DNA of 8,695 nucleotides, from the IMG/VR virus record IMGVR_UViG_2690316148_000010; one strand, written 5' to 3'. This DNA is from a virus. Taxonomy: Duplodnaviria; Heunggongvirae; Uroviricota; Caudoviricetes. Of this stretch, positions 782 to 8,388 are shown piece by piece. The notes below the pieces were generated by a model that was given only the letters and a program-made list of their open reading frames with translations, did no database searches and was not told the DNA's origin. Each line of letters starts with the position of its first letter. Positions within the stretch are counted from its first letter, which is position 1. Position numbers and translations under genes: made by a program.

Positions 782-1324
782 TTGCGAGGTGAGGAGTGGC
801 TANNNNNNNNNNNNNNNNNNNNGCAGACTGAAGTTGCCAGGCATTTAAGTCTGACCGATCGCCAGCTTCGCAGATTGCAGAAATTGCCGGGTGCCCCGAT
901 ATCGAATAAGCGAGGGCAACTGGATCTGGATGCCTGGCGCGATTTTTACATATCGTATCTGAGAAGAAGTAAAAACGATGTGCCTGATGGCGATAGCGAA
1001 GACGACTATGAGGAAAAATTGCTTATTGCCAGATGGGAACTGACAGCAGAACAGGCTGTTACACAGCAGTTAAAAAATGAGGTGTCAAAAGGAAAACTTA
1101 TTGACACCGGGTTCTGTATTTTTGCCCTCAGCAAGCTGGCAATGGCGTTATCCAGTACGCTTGATTCCATCCCTTTATCCATGCAACGACAGTTTCCTGA
1201 TTTAACACCACGCCATCTTGACCATCTGAAAACCCTTATTGCGAAGGGGGCAAATCAGTGTGCGCGGGCAGGGGATAAATTACCGGATTTACTCGATGAA
1301 TATATCAGAGCAACAACTGAATAA
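782..1324 (+). CDS. nu1: Terminase small subunit (lambda Nu1 homologue); true start probably lies in or beside the N-run
   Basis: Translation after the gap, QTEVARHLSLTDRQLRRLQKLPG..., aligns with the lambda Nu1 N-terminal helix-turn-helix (KKQLADIFGASIRTIQNW...). The C-terminal half (IDTGFCIFALSKLAMALSSTLDSIPLSMQRQFPDLTPRHLDHLK, ending DLLDEYI) parallels lambda Nu1 (ETAFCTFVLSRIAGEIASILDGLPLSVQRRFPELENRHVDFLK, ending GLLSEYI). The track start at 782 is TTG; a strong Shine-Dalgarno (gaggag, 791-796) sits 6 nt before the N-run, so the real start codon is likely masked near 803-810. Stop TAA at 1322-1324. Confidence 0.85.
   Translation: MRGEEWLXXXXXXXQTEVARHLSLTDRQLRRLQKLPGAPISNKRGQLDLDAWRDFYISYLRRSKNDVPDGDSEDDYEEKLLIARWELTAEQAVTQQLKNEVSKGKLIDTGFCIFALSKLAMALSSTLDSIPLSMQRQFPDLTPRHLDHLKTLIAKGANQCARAGDKLPDLLDEYIRATTE
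803..822. other. Run of 20 undetermined bases (N) within the 5' end of the small terminase gene
   Basis: Literal n characters. The reading frame is continuous across the run only if its length is real. Confidence 0.95.
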
Positions 1325-3224
1325 TATGATGAGTGCTGTCACAACAGCATTACAGCCCCTGATAAGGGCATTGCCGGTGACGCCAGTTGAATGGGCTGAT
1401 CAAAATTATTATCTGCCTAAAGAATCTTCATATGGTGAGGGAGAATGGAAAACGCTGCCGTTCCAGGTCGCCATTATGAACTGTATGGGTAACGACCAGG
1501 TTCGCACGGTTAACCTGATTAAATCTGCCCGTGTTGGCTATACAAAGATGTTGCTGGGGGTGGTCGGGTATTTTATTGAGCATAAATCACGAAACAGTCT
1601 GCTTTTTCAGCCCACGGATTCTGCCGCTGAAGATTTTATGAAGTCTCACGTGGAGGCGACGATTCGGGATGTGCCATGCCTGAAAGACCTTTCCCCATGG
1701 CTGGGTCGTAAACATCGTGATAATACCCTCACGCTGAAACGTTTTTCATCGGGCGTGGGCTTCTGGTGCCTGGGCGGGGCTGCCGCTAAAAACTACCGTG
1801 AAAAATCCGTGGACGTGGTCTGCTATGACGAACTTTCCTCGTTCGAACCGGATGTCGAAAAAGAGGGGTCGCCAACCCTGCTTGGGGATAAACGTATTGA
1901 GGGCTCTGTATGGCCCAAATCCATTCGCGGCTCGACGCCTAAAATCAAAGGCACCTGCCAGATCGAAAAAGCGGCCAACGAGTCGGCGCATTTTATGCGT
2001 TTTTATGTGCCCTGCCCACACTGTGGGGAGGAGCAGTATCTGAAATTTGGCGATGAGTCCACGCCTTTTGGGCTTAAATGGGAGAAGGACAGTCCCGAAA
2101 GTGTTTTCTACCTCTGTGAACATCATGGCTGCGTGATCCATCAGTCTGAACTGGACCAGAGCAACGGGCGGTGGATCTGTGAAAACACGGGCATGTGGAC
2201 CCGTGACGGTCTGACGTTTTTCAGCGCTGCGGGTAATGAAATTCCGCCGCCGCGCTCCATCACGTTCCATATCTGGACGGCGTACAGTCCGTTTACCACC
2301 TGGGTACAGATAGTCTATGACTGGCTGGATGCACTGAAAGATCCCAACGGCGTGAAAACCTTTGTGAACACCACGCTGGGCGAGACCTGGGAAGAGGCCG
2401 TGGGCGAAAAACTTGATCACCAGGTGCTGATGGATAAGGTCGTGCATTATACGGCGGCGGTACCTGCCCGGGTGGTTTATCTGACGGCGGGCATTGACTC
2501 GCAGCGAAACCGTTTTGAGATGTATGTCTGGGGATGGGCACCGGGAGAGGAAGCTTTTCTGGTGGATAAAATCATCATTATGGGGCGTCCTGATGAGGAA
2601 GAGACGCTGTTACGTGTGGATGCGGCGATCAACAAAAAATACCGCCATGCGGATGGCACCGAGATGACCATTTCCCGTGTCTGCTGGGACACCGGGGGGA
2701 TCGATGGCGAAATCGTTTATCAGAGGTCAAAAAAACACGGTGTTTTCCGGGTGCTGCCGGTAAAAGGTGCATCTGTTTATGGCAAGCCGGTGATCACCAT
2801 GCCAAAAACCCGCAATCAGCGGGGCGTGTATCTGTGCGAAGTGGGGACGGACACCGCAAAAGAAATTCTCTATGCCCGTATGAAAGCCGATCCCACGCCT
2901 GCGGATGAAGCCACGTCGTATGCCATCCGTTTTCCTGATGAGCCGGAGATTTTTTCGCAGACAGAGGCGCAGCAACTGGTGGCGGAAGAGCTTGTGGAGA
3001 AGTGGGAAAAAGGAAAGATGCGTCTGCTGTGGGATAACAAAAAGCGGCGTAACGAAGCGCTGGACTGCCTGGTGTATGCCTACGCGGCATTACGTGTGTC
3101 CGTGCAACGCTGGCAGCTTGATCTGGCTGTACTGGCAAAATCCCGGGAAGAAGAGACGACCCGGCCACCCCTTAAAGAACTGGCAGCGAAGCTGTCCGGA
3201 GGAGTGAATGGTTACAGTCGCTGA
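1296..3224 (+). CDS. A: Terminase large subunit (lambda gpA homologue; ATPase and cos-cutting endonuclease), 642 aa
   Basis: Strong co-linear similarity to lambda gpA along the full length, e.g. MNIS..., VEWADQNYYLPKES, KSARVGYTKMLLGV, KRFSSGVGFWCLGGAAAKNYREKSVDV, GDKRIEGSVWPKSIRGSTPK, FYVPCPHCGEEQYLKFGD, FHIWTAYSPFTTWVQIV, FVNTTLGETWEE, YLTAGIDSQ, KGASVYGKPV, LWDNKKRRNEALDC. Start placed at ATG 1296 (MNISEQQ...), which matches the lambda gpA N-terminus (MNISNSQ) and overlaps the end of nu1 by 29 nt as in lambda; the track's upstream ATG at 1239 lies inside nu1. Confidence 0.95.
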   Translation: MNISEQQLNNMMSAVTTALQPLIRALPVTPVEWADQNYYLPKESSYGEGEWKTLPFQVAIMNCMGNDQVRTVNLIKSARVGYTKMLLGVVGYFIEHKSRNSLLFQPTDSAAEDFMKSHVEATIRDVPCLKDLSPWLGRKHRDNTLTLKRFSSGVGFWCLGGAAAKNYREKSVDVVCYDELSSFEPDVEKEGSPTLLGDKRIEGSVWPKSIRGSTPKIKGTCQIEKAANESAHFMRFYVPCPHCGEEQYLKFGDESTPFGLKWEKDSPESVFYLCEHHGCVIHQSELDQSNGRWICENTGMWTRDGLTFFSAAGNEIPPPRSITFHIWTAYSPFTTWVQIVYDWLDALKDPNGVKTFVNTTLGETWEEAVGEKLDHQVLMDKVVHYTAAVPARVVYLTAGIDSQRNRFEMYVWGWAPGEEAFLVDKIIIMGRPDEEETLLRVDAAINKKYRHADGTEMTISRVCWDTGGIDGEIVYQRSKKHGVFRVLPVKGASVYGKPVITMPKTRNQRGVYLCEVGTDTAKEILYARMKADPTPADEATSYAIRFPDEPEIFSQTEAQQLVAEELVEKWEKGKMRLLWDNKKRRNEALDCLVYAYAALRVSVQRWQLDLAVLAKSREEETTRPPLKELAAKLSGGVNGYSR

Positions 3225-3414
3225 ACTGCAGGCGCTGCGTCAGGCGCGCCTTGATTTATTAACCGGTAAACGGGTGGTGTCTGTCCAGAAAGATGGTCGC
3301 AGAATTGAATATACGGCGGCTTCTCTGGATGAGCTTAACCGGGCGATCAATGATGCGGAGTCGGTACTGGGGACAACCCGGCGTCGCCGTCGTCCGCTGG
3401 GAGTGAGGTTATGA
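3208..3414 (+). CDS. W: Head-tail connector / head-stabilising protein (lambda gpW homologue), 68 aa
   Basis: MVTVAELQALRQARLDLLTGKRVVSVQKDGRRIEYTAASL... parallels lambda gpW (...[24 protein letters not shown]...) at the same length and position between A and B. Overlaps the end of A by 17 nt; its stop overlaps the B start (ATGA at 3411-3414). Confidence 0.85.
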   Translation: MVTVAELQALRQARLDLLTGKRVVSVQKDGRRIEYTAASLDELNRAINDAESVLGTTRRRRRPLGVRL

Positions 3415-5003
3415 AACGAACGCCTGTCCTGATTGATGTGAACGGCGTTCCGCTTCGGGAGAGCCTCAGCTACAACGGGGGCGGCGCAGGATTTGGCGGG
3501 CAAATGGCGGAGTGGTTGCCACCCTCGCAGAGTGCCGATGCGGCCCTGCTGCCCGCGTTGCGTCTGGGGAATGCCCGGGCAGATGATCTGGTGCGCAATA
3601 ACGGGATAGCGGCCAATGCGGTGGCCCTGCATAAGGATCACATTGTCGGGCATATGTTTCTTATCAGCTACCGTCCGAACTGGCGCTGGCTGGGGATGCG
3701 GGAGACCGCGGCAAAAAGTTTTGTCGATGAGGTGGAGGCGGCCTGGTCAGAATACGCAGAAGGGATGTTTGGTGAGATCGACGTGGAAGGGAAACGCACG
3801 TTTACGGAATTTATCCGTGAAGGTGTGGGCGTTCATGCGTTTAACGGCGAAATCTTTGTGCAGCCGGTCTGGGATACGGAAACCACGCAGTTATTCCGTA
3901 CGCGTTTTAAAGCCGTGAGTCCGAAACGGGTGGACACGCCAGGACACGGTATCGGGAACCGTTTTCTGCGGGCCGGTGTGGAGGTCGATCGATATGGCCG
4001 TGCCGTTGCGTACCATATCTGTGAGGATGATTTTCCTCGCTCCGGGAGTGGACGATGGGAACGGATCCCGCGTGAACTACCCACCGGGCGTCCGGCCATG
4101 CTGCATATTTTCGAGCCGGTGGAGGACGGGCAGACCCGTGGGGCCAATCAGTTTTACAGCGTCATGGAACGGCTGAAGATGCTCGATTCCCTGCAGGCAA
4201 CACAGCTTCAGTCGGCCATAGTGAAGGCGATGTATGCAGCGACGATTGAAAGTGAACTGGATACCGAAAAGGCCTTTGAATATATCGCCGGTGCGCCGCA
4301 GGGGCAGAAGGATAATCCGCTTATTAATATTCTGGAGAAGTTCTCCAGCTGGTATGACACGAATCACGTGACGCTGGGCGGTGTCAAAATTCCGCACCTT
4401 TTCCCTGGTGATGATCTGAAACTGCAGACAGCGCAGGATTCAGACAATGGATTTTCGGCGCTTGAACAGGCGCTGCTGCGGTATATCGCCGCCGGTCTTG
4501 GCGTTTCCTACGAACAGTTGTCCCGTGATTACTCGAAGGTCAGTTACTCAAGTGCCCGCGCCTCCGCCAATGAGTCGTGGCGCTATTTTATGGGGCGGCG
4601 AAAATTTATTGCGGCCCGACTGGCCACGCAGATGTTTTCCTGCTGGCTGGAAGAGGCACTTCTTCGGGGGATTATTCGTCCGCCACGGGCTCGTTTTGAT
4701 TTTTATCAGGCGCGATCAGCCTGGTCACGGGCAGAGTGGATTGGTGCCGGAAGAATGGCCATTGACGGGCTCAAGGAAGTCCAGGAATCAGTGATGCGCA
4801 TTGAGGCCGGACTGAGCACGTATGAGAAAGAGCTGGCGCTGATGGGCGAGGATTATCAGGACATTTTCCGCCAGCAGGTCAGGGAATCTGCAGAGCGGGA
4901 AAAAGCCGGACTCTCACGCCCGGTGTGGATAGCGCAGGCGTATCAGCAGCAGATAGCGGAGAGTCGCAGGCCGGAAGAGGAGACAACACCACGTGAGACG
5001 TAA
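3411..5003 (+). CDS. B: Portal protein (lambda gpB homologue), 530 aa
   Basis: Long conserved blocks shared with lambda gpB: GNARADDLVRNNG, FEPVEDGQTRGAN, FYSVME, MLDSLQATQLQSAIVKAMYAATIESELDT, LQTAQDSDNG, LLRYIAAGLGVSYEQLSRDY, YSSARASANESW, FMGRRKF, WIGAGRMAIDGLKEVQESVM, IEAGLSTYEKE. ATG at 3411 preceded by a ggagtgagg Shine-Dalgarno. Confidence 0.95.
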   Translation: MKRTPVLIDVNGVPLRESLSYNGGGAGFGGQMAEWLPPSQSADAALLPALRLGNARADDLVRNNGIAANAVALHKDHIVGHMFLISYRPNWRWLGMRETAAKSFVDEVEAAWSEYAEGMFGEIDVEGKRTFTEFIREGVGVHAFNGEIFVQPVWDTETTQLFRTRFKAVSPKRVDTPGHGIGNRFLRAGVEVDRYGRAVAYHICEDDFPRSGSGRWERIPRELPTGRPAMLHIFEPVEDGQTRGANQFYSVMERLKMLDSLQATQLQSAIVKAMYAATIESELDTEKAFEYIAGAPQGQKDNPLINILEKFSSWYDTNHVTLGGVKIPHLFPGDDLKLQTAQDSDNGFSALEQALLRYIAAGLGVSYEQLSRDYSKVSYSSARASANESWRYFMGRRKFIAARLATQMFSCWLEEALLRGIIRPPRARFDFYQARSAWSRAEWIGAGRMAIDGLKEVQESVMRIEAGLSTYEKELALMGEDYQDIFRQQVRESAEREKAGLSRPVWIAQAYQQQIAESRRPEEETTPRET

Positions 5004-6498
5004 TCTTTCACACATTATTGCCGCAGCATTCAATGAACCGCTGCTTCTGGAGCCCACCTATGCGCGGGTTTTCTTTTGCGCGCTCGGGCGCGAGATGGGG
5101 GCAGCAAGTCTTTCGGTACCACAACAACAGGTACAGCTTGATGCTCCCGGAATGCTGGCTGAAACGGACGAGTACATGGCCGGAGGTAAACGACCGGCCC
5201 GTGTTTACCGGGTGGTGAACGGTATTGCTGTACTGCCGGTGACCGGCACGCTGGTGCACCGGCTGGGCGGTATGCGGCCATTTTCCGGAATGACAGGCTA
5301 TGACGGCATTGTCGCCTGTCTTCAGCAGGCAATGGCAGATAGCCAGGTGCGGGGCGTACTGCTGGACATTGACAGTCCGGGCGGGCAGGCCGCCGGCGCG
5401 TTTGACTGCGCTGACATGATTTACCGCCTCCGTCAGCAGAAGCCGGTCTGGGCACTGTGCAATGACACGGCCTGTTCTGCAGCCATGCTGCTGGCGTCGG
5501 CCTGCTCCCGACGGCTGGTTACCCAGACATCCCGTATCGGCTCCATTGGCGTGATGATGAGCCATGTCAGCTATGCCGGTCATCTGGCGCAGGCCGGTGT
5601 GGATATCACGCTGATTTATGCCGGGGCGCACAAGGTGGATGGCAATCAGTTTGAAGCGTTGCCGGCAGAGGTTCGCCAGGATATGCAGCAGCGGATTGAT
5701 GCGGCGCACCGGATGTTTGCCGAAAAAGTGGCGATGTATACCGGGTTGTCTGTGGATGCGGTCACGGGAACAGAGGCCGCCGTTTTTGAAGGTCAGTCCG
5801 GCATTGAGGCCGGGCTGGCGGATGAATTAATCAATGCGTCGGATGCCATCAGCGTGATGGCTGCGGCGCTGAACACTCATGATACAGGAGGCACTATGCC
5901 GCAATTAACTGCAACGGAAGCTGCCGCGCAGGAGAACCAGCGAGTGATGGGGATCCTGACGTGTCAGGAAGCGAAAGGACGTGAACAGCTTGCCACGATG
6001 CTGGCAGGACAACAGGGCATGAGCATTGAACAGGCCCGGGCGATTCTGGCCGCGGCGGCACCACAGCAGCCGGTGGCATCCGCGCAGAGTGAAGCCGATC
6101 GCATTATGGCGTGTGAAGAAGCGAAAGGTCGTGAACAACTGGCGGCAACGCTGGCGGCGATGCCGGAGATGACGGTGGAAAAAGCACGCCCGATCCTGGC
6201 GGCTGCACCACTGGCGGATGCCGGGCCCTCACTTCGTGATCAGATCATGGCCCTGGATGAGGCAAAAGGGGCAGAAGCGCAGGCTGAAAAACTGGCGGCC
6301 TGCCCGGGAATGACCGTGGAGAACGCCCGGGCTGTGCTGGCTGCGGGATCAGGTAAGGCCGAACCGGTCTCTGCATCCACAACCGCCCTGTTTGAACATT
6401 TCATGGCGAATCATTCACCGGCAGCGGTGCGGGGTGGCGTGTCACAGACGTCAGCAGACGGTGATGCGGACGTGAAAATGCTCATGGCCATGCCATGA
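4993..6498 (+). CDS. C: Head maturation protease / minor capsid protein (lambda gpC homologue, ClpP/S49-like) with a C-terminal scaffold region, 501 aa
   Basis: N-terminal half parallels lambda gpC: AFNEPLLLEPTYARVFFCAL, VVNGIAVLPVTGTLV, SGMTGYDGIV, GVLLDIDSPGGQAAGAFDCADMI, KPVWALCND, RRLVTQTSRIGSIGVMMSH, ITLIYAGAHKVDGN, EAAVFEGQSGIEAGLADELIN. GTG start at 4993 overlaps the end of B by 11 nt. The C-terminal third carries three tandem copies of an ...EAKG.E...M(T/S)(V/I)E.AR.(I/V)LAA... module. Confidence 0.9.
   Translation: MRRNLSHIIAAAFNEPLLLEPTYARVFFCALGREMGAASLSVPQQQVQLDAPGMLAETDEYMAGGKRPARVYRVVNGIAVLPVTGTLVHRLGGMRPFSGMTGYDGIVACLQQAMADSQVRGVLLDIDSPGGQAAGAFDCADMIYRLRQQKPVWALCNDTACSAAMLLASACSRRLVTQTSRIGSIGVMMSHVSYAGHLAQAGVDITLIYAGAHKVDGNQFEALPAEVRQDMQQRIDAAHRMFAEKVAMYTGLSVDAVTGTEAAVFEGQSGIEAGLADELINASDAISVMAAALNTHDTGGTMPQLTATEAAAQENQRVMGILTCQEAKGREQLATMLAGQQGMSIEQARAILAAAAPQQPVASAQSEADRIMACEEAKGREQLAATLAAMPEMTVEKARPILAAAPLADAGPSLRDQIMALDEAKGAEAQAEKLAACPGMTVENARAVLAAGSGKAEPVSASTTALFEHFMANHSPAAVRGGVSQTSADGDADVKMLMAMP
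5896..6498 (+). CDS. nu3: Nested in-frame scaffold protein (lambda Nu3-like), sharing the C-terminal 200 codons and stop of C
   Basis: Internal ATG at 5896 is in frame with C ((5896-4993)/3 = 301) and preceded by a strong Shine-Dalgarno (aggagg, 5886-5891) at 4-nt spacing. The 200-aa length matches lambda Nu3, which is translated in frame from within C. Independent initiation is inferred, not demonstrated. Confidence 0.6.
   Translation: MPQLTATEAAAQENQRVMGILTCQEAKGREQLATMLAGQQGMSIEQARAILAAAAPQQPVASAQSEADRIMACEEAKGREQLAATLAAMPEMTVEKARPILAAAPLADAGPSLRDQIMALDEAKGAEAQAEKLAACPGMTVENARAVLAAGSGKAEPVSASTTALFEHFMANHSPAAVRGGVSQTSADGDADVKMLMAMP
5941..6349 (+). repeat. Three imperfect in-frame tandem coding repeats (~37-43 aa each) within the C/Nu3 scaffold region
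   Basis: Copy 1 (5941-6063) RVMGILTCQEAKGREQLATMLAGQQGMSIEQARAILAAAAP; copy 2 (6100-6210) RIMACEEAKGREQLAATLAAMPEMTVEKARPILAAAP; copy 3 (6235-6349) RDQIMALDEAKGAEAQAEKLAACPGMTVENARAVLAAGSG. Nucleotide similarity is visible, e.g. gaagcgaaaggacgtgaacagctt versus gaagcgaaaggtcgtgaacaactg. Confidence 0.8.
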
Positions 6499-6534
6499 AG
6501 TCAGTGCTGACCATCAATATGAGGTTTTAACAAA

Positions 6535-6882
6535 ATGGTGACGAAAACCATCACTGAACAGCGTGCGGAAGTACGTATTTTTGCTGGTAATGATCCGGCT
6601 CATACCGCCACAGGCAGCAGCGGGATTTCTTCTGCAACACCGGCTCTGACGCCCCTGATGCTGGATGAAGCCACCGGGAAACTGGTGGTCTGGGATGGAC
6701 AGAAAGCCGGTAGTGCGGTTGGCATACTGGTACTGCCGCTTGAAGGCACAGAGACGGTGCTGACCTATTACAAGTCGGGGACCTTTGCGACGGAGGCAAT
6801 CCGCTGGCCTGACAGTGTGGATGAACACAAAAAGGCAAATGCCTTTGCCGGCACAGCCCTGAGTCACGCGGCTCTGCCGTAA
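6535..6882 (+). CDS. D: Head decoration protein (lambda gpD homologue), 115 aa
   Basis: NDPAHTATGSSGISSATPALTPLMLDEATGKLVVWDG...VGILV...YYKSGTFATEAIRWP...KANAFAGTAL parallels lambda gpD ([26 protein letters not shown]...KLVAWDG...FYKSGTF...FAGTAI). ATG at 6535; stop TAA at 6880-6882. Confidence 0.9.
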   Translation: MVTKTITEQRAEVRIFAGNDPAHTATGSSGISSATPALTPLMLDEATGKLVVWDGQKAGSAVGILVLPLEGTETVLTYYKSGTFATEAIRWPDSVDEHKKANAFAGTALSHAALP

Positions 6883-6890
6883 CACGTTAT

Positions 6891-6910
6891 CAGGCCACCA
6901 TGGTGGCCTG
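6891..6910 (+). repeat. 20-bp perfect palindrome CAGGCCACCATGGTGGCCTG in the D-E intergenic region (potential RNA hairpin)
   Basis: Read directly: caggccacca (6891-6900) is the reverse complement of tggtggcctg (6901-6910). It lies 8 nt after the D stop and 30 nt before the E start; there is no strong downstream T-run. Confidence 0.6.
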
Positions 6911-6939
6911 ACTGATTTCTGAATGAAAGGAACTGATTT

Positions 6940-7968
6940 ATGGGATTGTTTACGACCCGCCAGTTACTCGGTTATACCGAACAAAAAGTTAAATTTCGTG
7001 CGCTGTTTCTGGAACTGTTTTTCCGCCGTACGGTGAATTTCCACACCGAAGAGGTGATGCTGGACAAAATTACCGGAAAAACGCCGGTGGCGGCCTATGT
7101 CTCCCCGGTCGTTGAAGGAAAAGTGCTGCGTCATCGTGGGGGTGAAACCCGCGTGTTACGTCCGGGCTACGTCAAGCCGAAACACGAATTTAATTACCAG
7201 CAGGCGGTTGAACGCCTTCCCGGTGAAGATCCGGCTCAGCTGAACGACCCGGCCTACCGTCGTCTGCGTATCATCACTGATAACCTCAAACAGGAAGAGC
7301 ACGCTATTGTGCAGGTGGAAGAAATGCAGGCGGTGAATGCCGTGCTGTATGGCAAATATACGATGGAAGGAGACCAGTTCGAGAAAATTGAAGTCGATTT
7401 TGGCCGATCGACGAAGAATAACATCATACAGGGTAGCGGTAAGGAGTGGTCAAAACAGGATCGTGACACGTTCGACCCGACATATGATATCGACCTTTTC
7501 TGTGATCAGGCCAGTGGTCTTGTGAATATTGCCATTATGGACGGTACCGTCTGGCGTCTGCTGAATGGCTTTAAGCTTTTCCGCGAAAAACTGGATACCC
7601 GTCGCGGTTCAAATTCACAACTCGAAACGGCAGTGAAAGATCTGGGCGCAGTGGTATCCTTCAAGGGGTATTACGGCGATCTGGCTATTGTGGTAGCGAA
7701 AACGTCTTATGTGGCAGAGGACGGTACCGAAAAACGTTATCTGCCGGAGGGCACGCTGGTGCTGGGGAATACGGCGGCAGAGGGGATTCGTTGCTATGGA
7801 GCCATTAAGGATGCACAGGCGTTGTCTGAAGGAGTGGTGGCTTCTTCCCGTTACCCGAAACACTGGCTGACCGTGGGCGATCCGTCCTGTGAATTCACCA
7901 TGACGCAGTCCGCGCCGCTGATGGTGCTGCCGGATCCGGATGAGTTTGTGGTGGTACAGGTGAAATAA
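6940..7968 (+). CDS. E: Major capsid protein (lambda gpE homologue), 342 aa
   Basis: Co-linear similarity to lambda gpE: YVSPVVEGKVLRHRGG, PGYVKPKHE, DPAYRRLRII, EEHAIVQVEEMQAVNAVLYGKYTMEGD, KLDTRRGSNSQLETAVKDLG, YGDLAIVV, FLPEGTLVLGNT, FTMTQSAPLMVLPDPDEFV. ATG at 6940 with an aaagga Shine-Dalgarno; stop TAA at 7966-7968. Confidence 0.95.
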   Translation: MGLFTTRQLLGYTEQKVKFRALFLELFFRRTVNFHTEEVMLDKITGKTPVAAYVSPVVEGKVLRHRGGETRVLRPGYVKPKHEFNYQQAVERLPGEDPAQLNDPAYRRLRIITDNLKQEEHAIVQVEEMQAVNAVLYGKYTMEGDQFEKIEVDFGRSTKNNIIQGSGKEWSKQDRDTFDPTYDIDLFCDQASGLVNIAIMDGTVWRLLNGFKLFREKLDTRRGSNSQLETAVKDLGAVVSFKGYYGDLAIVVAKTSYVAEDGTEKRYLPEGTLVLGNTAAEGIRCYGAIKDAQALSEGVVASSRYPKHWLTVGDPSCEFTMTQSAPLMVLPDPDEFVVVQVK

Positions 7969-7976
7969 TCCGTGAG

Positions 7977-8004
7977 CGGGGGCGAAATGCCCCCGTGTTT
8001 TTTT
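7977..8004 (+). terminator. Intrinsic-terminator-like hairpin immediately downstream of E (likely partial terminator or RNA-stability element)
   Basis: Stem cgggggc (7977-7983), loop gaaat (7984-7988), stem gcccccg (7989-7995): a 7-bp GC-rich perfect stem, followed by tgttttttt (7996-8004). Sits between the E stop (7968) and the FI start (8020). Confidence 0.5.
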
Positions 8005-8019
8005 CACAGGGAGCTGGAT

Positions 8020-8388
8020 ATGGCAACAAAAGAAGAAAATCAGAAACGTCTTCGTGAACTGGCTGGTCTGCTGGGGCGCGAGGCGGATATGTCGGGGAGT
8101 GCTGCGGATATCGCACAGCGTGTGGCAGAGTGGGAAGAGGAGGTTTGCGCCTCGGAAAATGAAATCGCAGATGTTGATGATACCGTTCATGAGCAGGCAT
8201 GCAGGCACACCGGTGAGGATGACGTTGGTATTCTGGAACGTATCAGGCTTCTGAAGTGTTTTTACCTGTGCGGTGTTGACGATGAAACAGGTGAGCCTGT
8301 TGAGCATGTTGATGCTGGCAGAGTAATTCTGATGCCCCCCTCAGTGGCAAAAGACATGGTCAGGAGCGGAATGGCCGTTTATGCATGA
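8020..8388 (+). CDS. FI: DNA-packaging / head-assembly accessory protein (lambda gpFI-like), acidic, 122 aa
   Basis: Position between E and FII matches lambda. N-terminus MATKEENQKRLRELAGLLGRE loosely parallels lambda FI (MTKDELIARLRSLGEQLNRD). Start set at ATG 8020 with an upstream gggag Shine-Dalgarno rather than the track's GTG at 7972, which would read through the terminator-like hairpin. Stop TGA at 8386-8388. Confidence 0.7.
   Translation: MATKEENQKRLRELAGLLGREADMSGSAADIAQRVAEWEEEVCASENEIADVDDTVHEQACRHTGEDDVGILERIRLLKCFYLCGVDDETGEPVEHVDAGRVILMPPSVAKDMVRSGMAVYA

Follow-up and report, generated by a model that had tools for sequence, protein, structure and literature searches.

The prohead protease/scaffold gene of a lambdoid phage sequence carries three in-frame, diverged tandem copies of a 41-residue module, and these copies are the Tri boxes annotated for bacteriophage 21. 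The sequence is IMG/VR virus record IMGVR_UViG_2690316148_000010 (Caudoviricetes), an 8,695-nucleotide stretch that we call the window; its coordinates are used throughout, and features lie on the plus strand unless otherwise noted. Within the gene (4993–6498; 501 amino acids, GTG start) the copies occupy residues 316–356 (5938–6060; QRVMGILTCQEAKGREQLATMLAGQQGMSIEQARAILAAAA), 366–406 (6088–6210; SEADRIMACEEAKGREQLAATLAAMPEMTVEKARPILAAAP), and 413–453 (6229–6351; SLRDQIMALDEAKGAEAQAEKLAACPGMTVENARAVLAAGS). GenBank record M81255.1 (“Bacteriophage 21 head gene operon”), whose feature table is our source for the prior description, lists three repeat_regions in phage 21 gene 6, namely a Tri1 box (5542–5645), a Tri box (5682–5792), and a Tri3 box (5823–5936). 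Gene 5 spans 4572–6077 in that record and its counterpart spans 4993–6498 here, an offset of 421 nucleotides, which places the three boxes at window positions 5963–6066, 6103–6213, and 6244–6357, overlapping copies 1, 2, and 3, respectively. Their bases match the window at 101/104, 104/111, and 106/114 positions (93–97%), and their translations are the three modules. Triplication is thus already a recorded property of phage 21’s Nu3 analogue. A first-pass annotation of the window had placed three such modules at 5941–6349, all inside a nested Nu3-like open reading frame (ORF); the coordinates were essentially right and all copies do fall within the nested ORF (5896–6498, phage 21 gene 6), while the novelty it implied falls to M81255.1, where the same segments are already annotated.

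Similarity among the copies is far above what their composition would produce. Ungapped pairwise amino acid identity is 22/41, 18/41, and 24/41 (44–59%), and local BLOSUM62 scores between copies are 107, 81, and 102, against means of 22–24 (standard deviation 4–5) for composition-preserving shuffles. With z = 12–20 and 0/2000 shuffles reaching the observed score, the similarity is therefore not a matter of Ala-rich composition alone, and the self-alignment that the first-pass annotation had proposed as a check returns true repeats, tandem, in frame, and diverged as it had described them. Sixteen columns are invariant among the copies and in register, including I, EAKG, E, A, LA, M, E, AR, and LAA. 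Scored against a first three-copy profile, the three copies reach 80–84 bits (measured on P0001, a 97%-identical protein), and they fit the family pattern I..(C)..EAKGRE.LA..LA....M......A...L.AAP. One alternative is that the resemblance reflects mere low-complexity, Ala-rich sequence with no true repeats, a reading to which the 24% Ala content of the Nu3-like region and the failure of Tandem Repeats Finder to detect the array at the DNA level would both lend themselves. Given the shuffle scores, the invariant columns (EAKG.E among them, in register across copies), and a 41-position profile of the module that matches 1519 clusters in public data, we see practically no chance that it is correct. 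Tandem Repeats Finder is blind to the array because DNA identity between copies is 62%, 53%, and 59%, with third codon positions matching at 34–41% (first and second positions, 61–76%). Such nearly random third positions beside conserved first and second ones mark the copies as old and under selection. A repeat-seed search of the region’s DNA likewise recovered fragments of 13–17 nucleotides only, and the repeat is visible at the protein level only.

The gene pair that bears the modules is almost certainly the head protease/scaffold pair of the phage 21 type, gene 5 with nested gene 6, in a lambdoid Escherichia coli prophage or phage, as judged from sequence similarity. The longer ORF, a homologue of phage 21 gene 5 and lambda C, sits between the portal and decoration-protein genes, is 96% identical in amino acid sequence to phage 21 gp5, and matches phrog_53, “head maturation protease” (E = 5e-227). 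Its residues 146–293 (5428–5871) form a Peptidase S49 (SppA-like) domain (Pfam PF01343, E = 1.5e-35) that also matches the SppA structures 3rst and 4kwb (E about 1e-16). Downstream of this domain, a Shine–Dalgarno sequence, AGGAGG (5886–5891), stands 4 nucleotides ahead of the ATG at 5896 and coincides with the ribosome-binding site annotated for gene 6 in M81255.1. The ORF that starts there (5896–6498; 200 residues, 24% Ala) corresponds to the M81255.1 coding sequence 5475–6077 plus the 421-nucleotide offset and is the homologue of phage 21 gene 6, the Nu3 analogue. At the sequence level, an in-frame internal start with its own ribosome-binding site thus predicts a scaffold identical to the protease C-terminus, and a 200-residue product with 97% identity to the nested ORF has been called independently in public data (P0001). 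The nested scaffold matches phrog_8399, “head scaffolding protein,” and phrog_8940, “capsid assembly protein,” each in three stretches, and the PHROG head scaffolding, capsid assembly, and head maturation protease families all match the window protein in three stretches. In lambda, gpC carries out proteolytic scaffold removal and self-processing during prohead maturation.

Protease and scaffold share, after the third module, a nonrepeated C-terminal tail (6352–6495; …FEHFMANHSP…DADVKMLMAMP). Its F-x-x-F-M…SP motif and (L/M)-L-M-x-(M/I)-P end are common to three-copy homologues, and the lambda C-terminus, LLNTPV, resembles the end of these tails. It could be this tail, and not the modules, that truly binds the capsid or portal.

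The three-copy arrangement is common. Of 5426 complete E. coli genomes, 1865 have a match to at least 80% of its 603-bp segment. The matching E. coli records number 1875, and of 40 rows sampled along their ranking, 38 contain the full 603 bp in one piece without gaps. The one-copy Nu3 segment of lambda is found in 3195 of the 5426 genomes. Both forms are therefore common in E. coli, and the three-copy form is a second standard type. Alignment of the window protein with the records of phage 21, phage D2, Gifsy-1, and lambda showed three modules in the first three and one in lambda, as the first-pass annotation had stated for lambda. That annotation had also allowed that the architecture would be ordinary if lambda and most lambdoid homologues had it too; the copies in D2, Gifsy-1, and about a third of complete E. 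coli genomes bear this out in part, and lambda differs. The triplication is correct as described and, being publicly annotated and this frequent, ordinary within the phage 21 lineage.

Beyond this lineage, one copy is the norm. A 41-column profile built from 22 modules was searched against 1.84 billion cluster representatives and yielded the 1519 clusters at E ≤ 0.001. When the best 150 of these were rescored with a minimum of 30 covered profile positions out of 41, 138 had one copy, 9 had two, and 3 had three; since multicopy scores sum and rise in the ranking, single copies must clearly predominate overall. The family consensus describes an element of about 45 residues (..ER.R...IL.C.EAKGRE.LA..LA...GMTV..AKA.LAAAP). 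PF01343 was found in 9/9 scanned carriers of at least 380 residues, with the module C-terminal to the S49 domain, and short carriers of 100–230 residues resemble stand-alone scaffolds or fragments. Residues 300–501 of the window protein have no Pfam or NCBIfam match, and parts of phrog_53, 8399, 8940, and 17040 cover the module. A homologue search with the 200-residue scaffold returned mostly truncated gene calls and was used for two- and four-copy variants, not for the census. It is in E. coli that a four-copy form occurs (P0024, 48 member sequences), with copies 2–4 showing 80–85% mutual identity, which suggests a younger, independent expansion; the four-module lineage comprises P0024, P0097, and P0078, all S49 peptidase fragments.

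Several carriers depart from the usual layout. On a 23.7-kb Logan contig (SRR25568644, our L007), positions 5001–5588 encode a stand-alone 195-residue protein with two modules and without a protease domain, in a compact phage-like element with a small-terminase-like gene upstream and, downstream, a gene for a 297-residue protein of unknown family and a tape-measure gene. This element could be a phage with a separate scaffold or a satellite-like element. Three odd module-bearing fusions join a portal N-terminus to S49 (P0125), S49 to tail protein L (P0130), and a tape-measure N-terminus to S49 (P0136); these probably reflect decayed prophages, or chimeras made during assembly or gene calling, and not real architectures.

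Comparison of sequences indicates that the three copies were fixed long ago in the 21/Gifsy lineage, with two or four copies in other lineages. Copy 1 is closest to copy 1 of other proteins (73–80%) and to lambda’s single copy, with which it shares an RVMGIL signature; copies 2 and 3 are 78% and 66% identical to the same-position copies of a Salmonella homologue (P0028) and 59% identical to each other. Because same-position copies are closest, triplication must be older than the divergence of the 21-type genes of E. coli from the Gifsy-type genes of Salmonella. Exact DNA matches between copies run to 8–11 nucleotides at most, which, given the requirements of RecA, is far too short for efficient homologous recombination. 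Together with DNA identities of 53–62%, these runs mark the copies as old duplications and poor substrates for homologous recombination, so that the first-pass annotation’s view of the repeat DNA as recombination-prone did not hold: nearly all sampled E. coli rows are full length, and deletions are rare and of the microhomology kind.

Such deletions center on copy 2, within which two 8-nucleotide direct repeats, CTGGCGGC (6139–6146 and 6196–6203), bracket a 57-nucleotide in-frame deletion. Aligned to the window, the gene at 298–1746 of NZ_AP022003.1 (L006), from a complete genome, lacks 6139–6195, and this allele encodes a 482-residue protein annotated as intact. The same deletion is present in P0008 (4 member sequences) and P0009 (53 member sequences), and the whole of copy 2 is lost in P0018 and P0013. 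Length variants are rare, and they are microhomology events and not products of unequal crossing-over between copies. A different reading of these variants is that the array arose recently and is unstable, its repeat DNA causing frequent unequal recombination and changes of copy number, and both the two kinds of copy 2 loss and the four-copy relative, with its copies 80–85% alike, could be taken in that sense. We regard it as very unlikely. The copies share no more than 53–62% of their DNA positions and the exact runs named above; the 57-nucleotide deletion lies within one copy, between 8-nucleotide microhomologies, and not between copies; each E. coli copy has its orthologue at the matching position in Salmonella; and the 603 bp are kept in the sampled E. 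coli matches, with 1865 genomes matching at least 80% of the segment. Recombination in this gene has also been seen elsewhere: the protease/scaffold of phage D2 (L005, OM475427.1, 486–2003) is a mosaic: about 100 N-terminal residues resemble lambda and everything after them, the three modules included, resembles phage 21, and recombination has therefore occurred within the gene and outside the repeats.

A single module is confidently predicted to fold. With an alignment of 70 sequences of diverse modules, AlphaFold modeled one module plus flanks (55 residues) with a predicted local distance difference test score (pLDDT) of 91 and a predicted template modeling score of 0.72, as a compact three-helix bundle with helices at 2–15, 24–31, and 38–47 and EAKGRE at the turn after helix 1. 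This model alone was used for fold searches, the model of the whole scaffold being too poor. Against predicted viral structures, the three best of 23 listed matches are the module in other S49 prohead proteases (E = 0.005–0.13), from Salmonella phage 37, Synechococcus virus S-ESS1, and an uncultured siphovirus, with template modeling scores of 0.86–0.92 (0.89–0.92 for the first two). Profile and structure-sequence searches found no solved gpC/Nu3-type scaffold region in the PDB, and fold searches there returned generic three-helix bundles. Protein A domains, GA modules, and Ebh/Embp score as any small three-helix bundle would, at 4–18% identity; these bacterial surface-protein modules belong to unrelated biology and have no evolutionary link to the scaffold module. 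Two further PDB candidates were set aside: a profile match to hemoglobin (E = 0.003 over 24 residues) is a chance match, and 9hqv_Un, a 24-residue unnamed chain with AKGREALAE, was dropped, 9hqv not being among the entries that match the window’s capsid protein.

What the modules do is a matter of more tentative interpretation. Lambda Nu3 is a scaffold for which Nu3–E, Nu3–Nu3, Nu3–C, and Nu3–B interactions have been reported (PMC3224144). By extension, the modules may be repeated protein-docking units of the scaffold, with a putative partner, an interpretation to which we give slightly less than an even chance. Each module would fold, perhaps on binding only, into a small three-helix bundle with the conserved, charged EAKGRE turn exposed. 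Inside the procapsid, abundant scaffold gp6 and rare protease gp5 would coassemble with one another, with the portal, or with the major capsid protein, and the module, being common to gp5 and gp6, may be what draws the two proteins into the growing shell. Having three such units, joined by flexible Pro/Ala/Gln linkers, would increase valency or extend reach and leave the T=7 head unchanged, and the S49 protease would remove the scaffold after assembly. A capsid-interaction role for the module region, as the first-pass annotation had suggested, is plausible. An overall account that blends the phage 21-type identity of the genes with the docking mechanism seems to us moderately probable.

Several observations weigh against docking by three stably folded units. 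The note attached to the Tri boxes in M81255.1 reads “function unknown; putative.” In copy 3, Ala replaces the Arg of EAKGRE that is kept in at least 90% of the family. Copy 2 is partly or wholly absent from some natural genes annotated as intact, and damage to it in apparently intact genes implies that not all three units may be needed. The AlphaFold model of the whole 200-residue scaffold, made with 12 sequences, has a pLDDT of 54, although it is helical in each module. Lambda gpNu3 is said, by the title of Medina et al. from 2011, to be intrinsically disordered, a description that the low whole-scaffold pLDDT fits and that implies the bundle may not be stably folded.

Some of the same facts would suit modules that are length or spacer elements, supplying helical mass and reach with no specific binding site, their number offsetting length differences elsewhere. 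Despite three copies versus one, gp6 has 200 residues and lambda Nu3 has what we take to be 201 (also the length of the phrog_8940 profile), and lambda has a 36-residue insertion just ahead of its single module; the copy 2 deletions in genes annotated as intact and the loss of the conserved Arg from copy 3 would also fit a spacer. Yet even with synonymous sites saturated, EAKGRE...GMTV..A..LAAAP has been kept in each copy and in over 1500 clusters, which a spacer would not require, and we think this explanation unlikely. Another proposal is that the modules serve self-association (gp6–gp6, gp5–gp6) or recognition by the protease, not contacts with capsid protein; in the latter variant the Ala-rich ends, LAAAP and LAAGS, would be S49 cleavage sites for scaffold removal. 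Every module does end in a small-residue run beside a Pro-rich linker, and Nu3–Nu3 and C–Nu3 interactions come from two-hybrid work on lambda, where degradation of Nu3 is attributed to C (PMC3224144). That study reports Nu3–E as well, and the proposal overlaps with the docking interpretation, in which the partner is left open; as a separate explanation we find it comparably improbable.

A broader form of the docking interpretation would make the EAKGRE module an uncatalogued, independently folding three-helix domain that is a universal procapsid-docking unit of S49 protease/scaffold proteins, with copy number (1–4) as an evolvable valency dial. We consider this form rather doubtful; if true, the Tri boxes would be a natural experiment on the multivalent scaffold–capsid contacts that control lambda-like head assembly. 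As a product of genome scanning, a textbook lambdoid head gene with an annotated repeat carries little weight. Mildly new are two things: the survey of the family as a whole, with single copies typical, a range of one to four, over 1500 clusters, and no domain model, and the high-confidence prediction of three helices in one module. Such value as remains is modest and lies in the Tri-box module itself, which is widespread, confidently predicted to fold, present in 1–4 copies, and without a Pfam, NCBIfam, or PDB relative.

The rest of the window agrees with the assignment of its head genes, for it is the left end of a lambdoid head operon. The genes for the small terminase (782–1324, partly masked by N runs), large terminase (about 1296–3224), a W-like protein (3208–3414), and portal (3411–5003) precede the protease/scaffold gene, and those for the decoration protein (6535–6882), major capsid protein (6940–7968), and an FI-like protein (7972–8388, PF14000) follow it, in the order annotated in M81255.1 and in PhiR12 records. 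By Megablast, PhiR12-type coliphages are closest to the window (95.5% DNA identity), and phage 21 (OL657228.1, M81255.1) is ~94.5% identical over 1378–8141. Runs of N occupy 648–726 (79 bases) and 803–822 (20 bases), where the terminase ORF translation shows X residues; through the 421-nucleotide offset to M81255.1, the masked region corresponds to cosB (R3-I1-R2 sites) and the start of the small terminase gene. Upstream of cos, a 61-residue ORF on the minus strand (218–403) belongs to DUF3950 (YlcI/YnfO-like; PF13132, E = 9e-19), a common small lambdoid-prophage gene of no known function. Two antisense ORFs (5894–6079 and 5905–6138) were rejected as genes, being short, unsupported, and opposite a strongly conserved coding frame. 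An Rfam scan of the whole window gave no match, so no RNA element of that collection explains the repeat region.

Among known systems, the C-terminal helix-turn-helix of P22 gp8 is a functional analogue only, as a small charged helical element near the end of a scaffold that is removed. Roles for this motif in P22 and phi29 scaffolds have been described (PMC11922011). The module studied here is, by contrast, a predicted three-helix bundle, repeated and then followed by a 48-residue tail, and profile and fold searches of the PDB gave no sequence or fold match between the two, so that the module does not belong with the gp8 element. P22 scaffold leaves intact and is not proteolysed.

Relatives by descent are closer. 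Gifsy-1 STM2605 and Salmonella S49 peptidases (P0028, P0042) have three modules in the same order, orthologous by position, and the Gifsy-1 major capsid protein is 86% identical to that of the window; STM2605 differs in its overall identity of 65%, the canonical EAKGRE in its copy 3, and a longer C-terminus. Lambda gpC/gpNu3 shares the S49 domain, the place between the portal and D/E genes, an in-frame nested scaffold with the C-terminus of the protease, and one clear copy of the module, ENSRIMGILNCEEAHGREEQARVLAETPGMTVKTARRILAAAP. It differs in having that one module versus three, in the 36-residue insertion directly ahead of it, in a shorter and unlike C-terminal tail, and in an overall identity of 57%. 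The start of lambda Nu3 presumably also lies farther upstream, within the protease domain, with which the phrog_8940 match at residues 235–297 agrees. Lambda and phage 21 form viable hybrids. Phage 21 itself has identical gene order, the same 501- and 200-residue nested products, and three repeats at the same positions, and the window differs from it by point changes only, such as K/N in the EAKG motif of copy 2 and a few in the tail.

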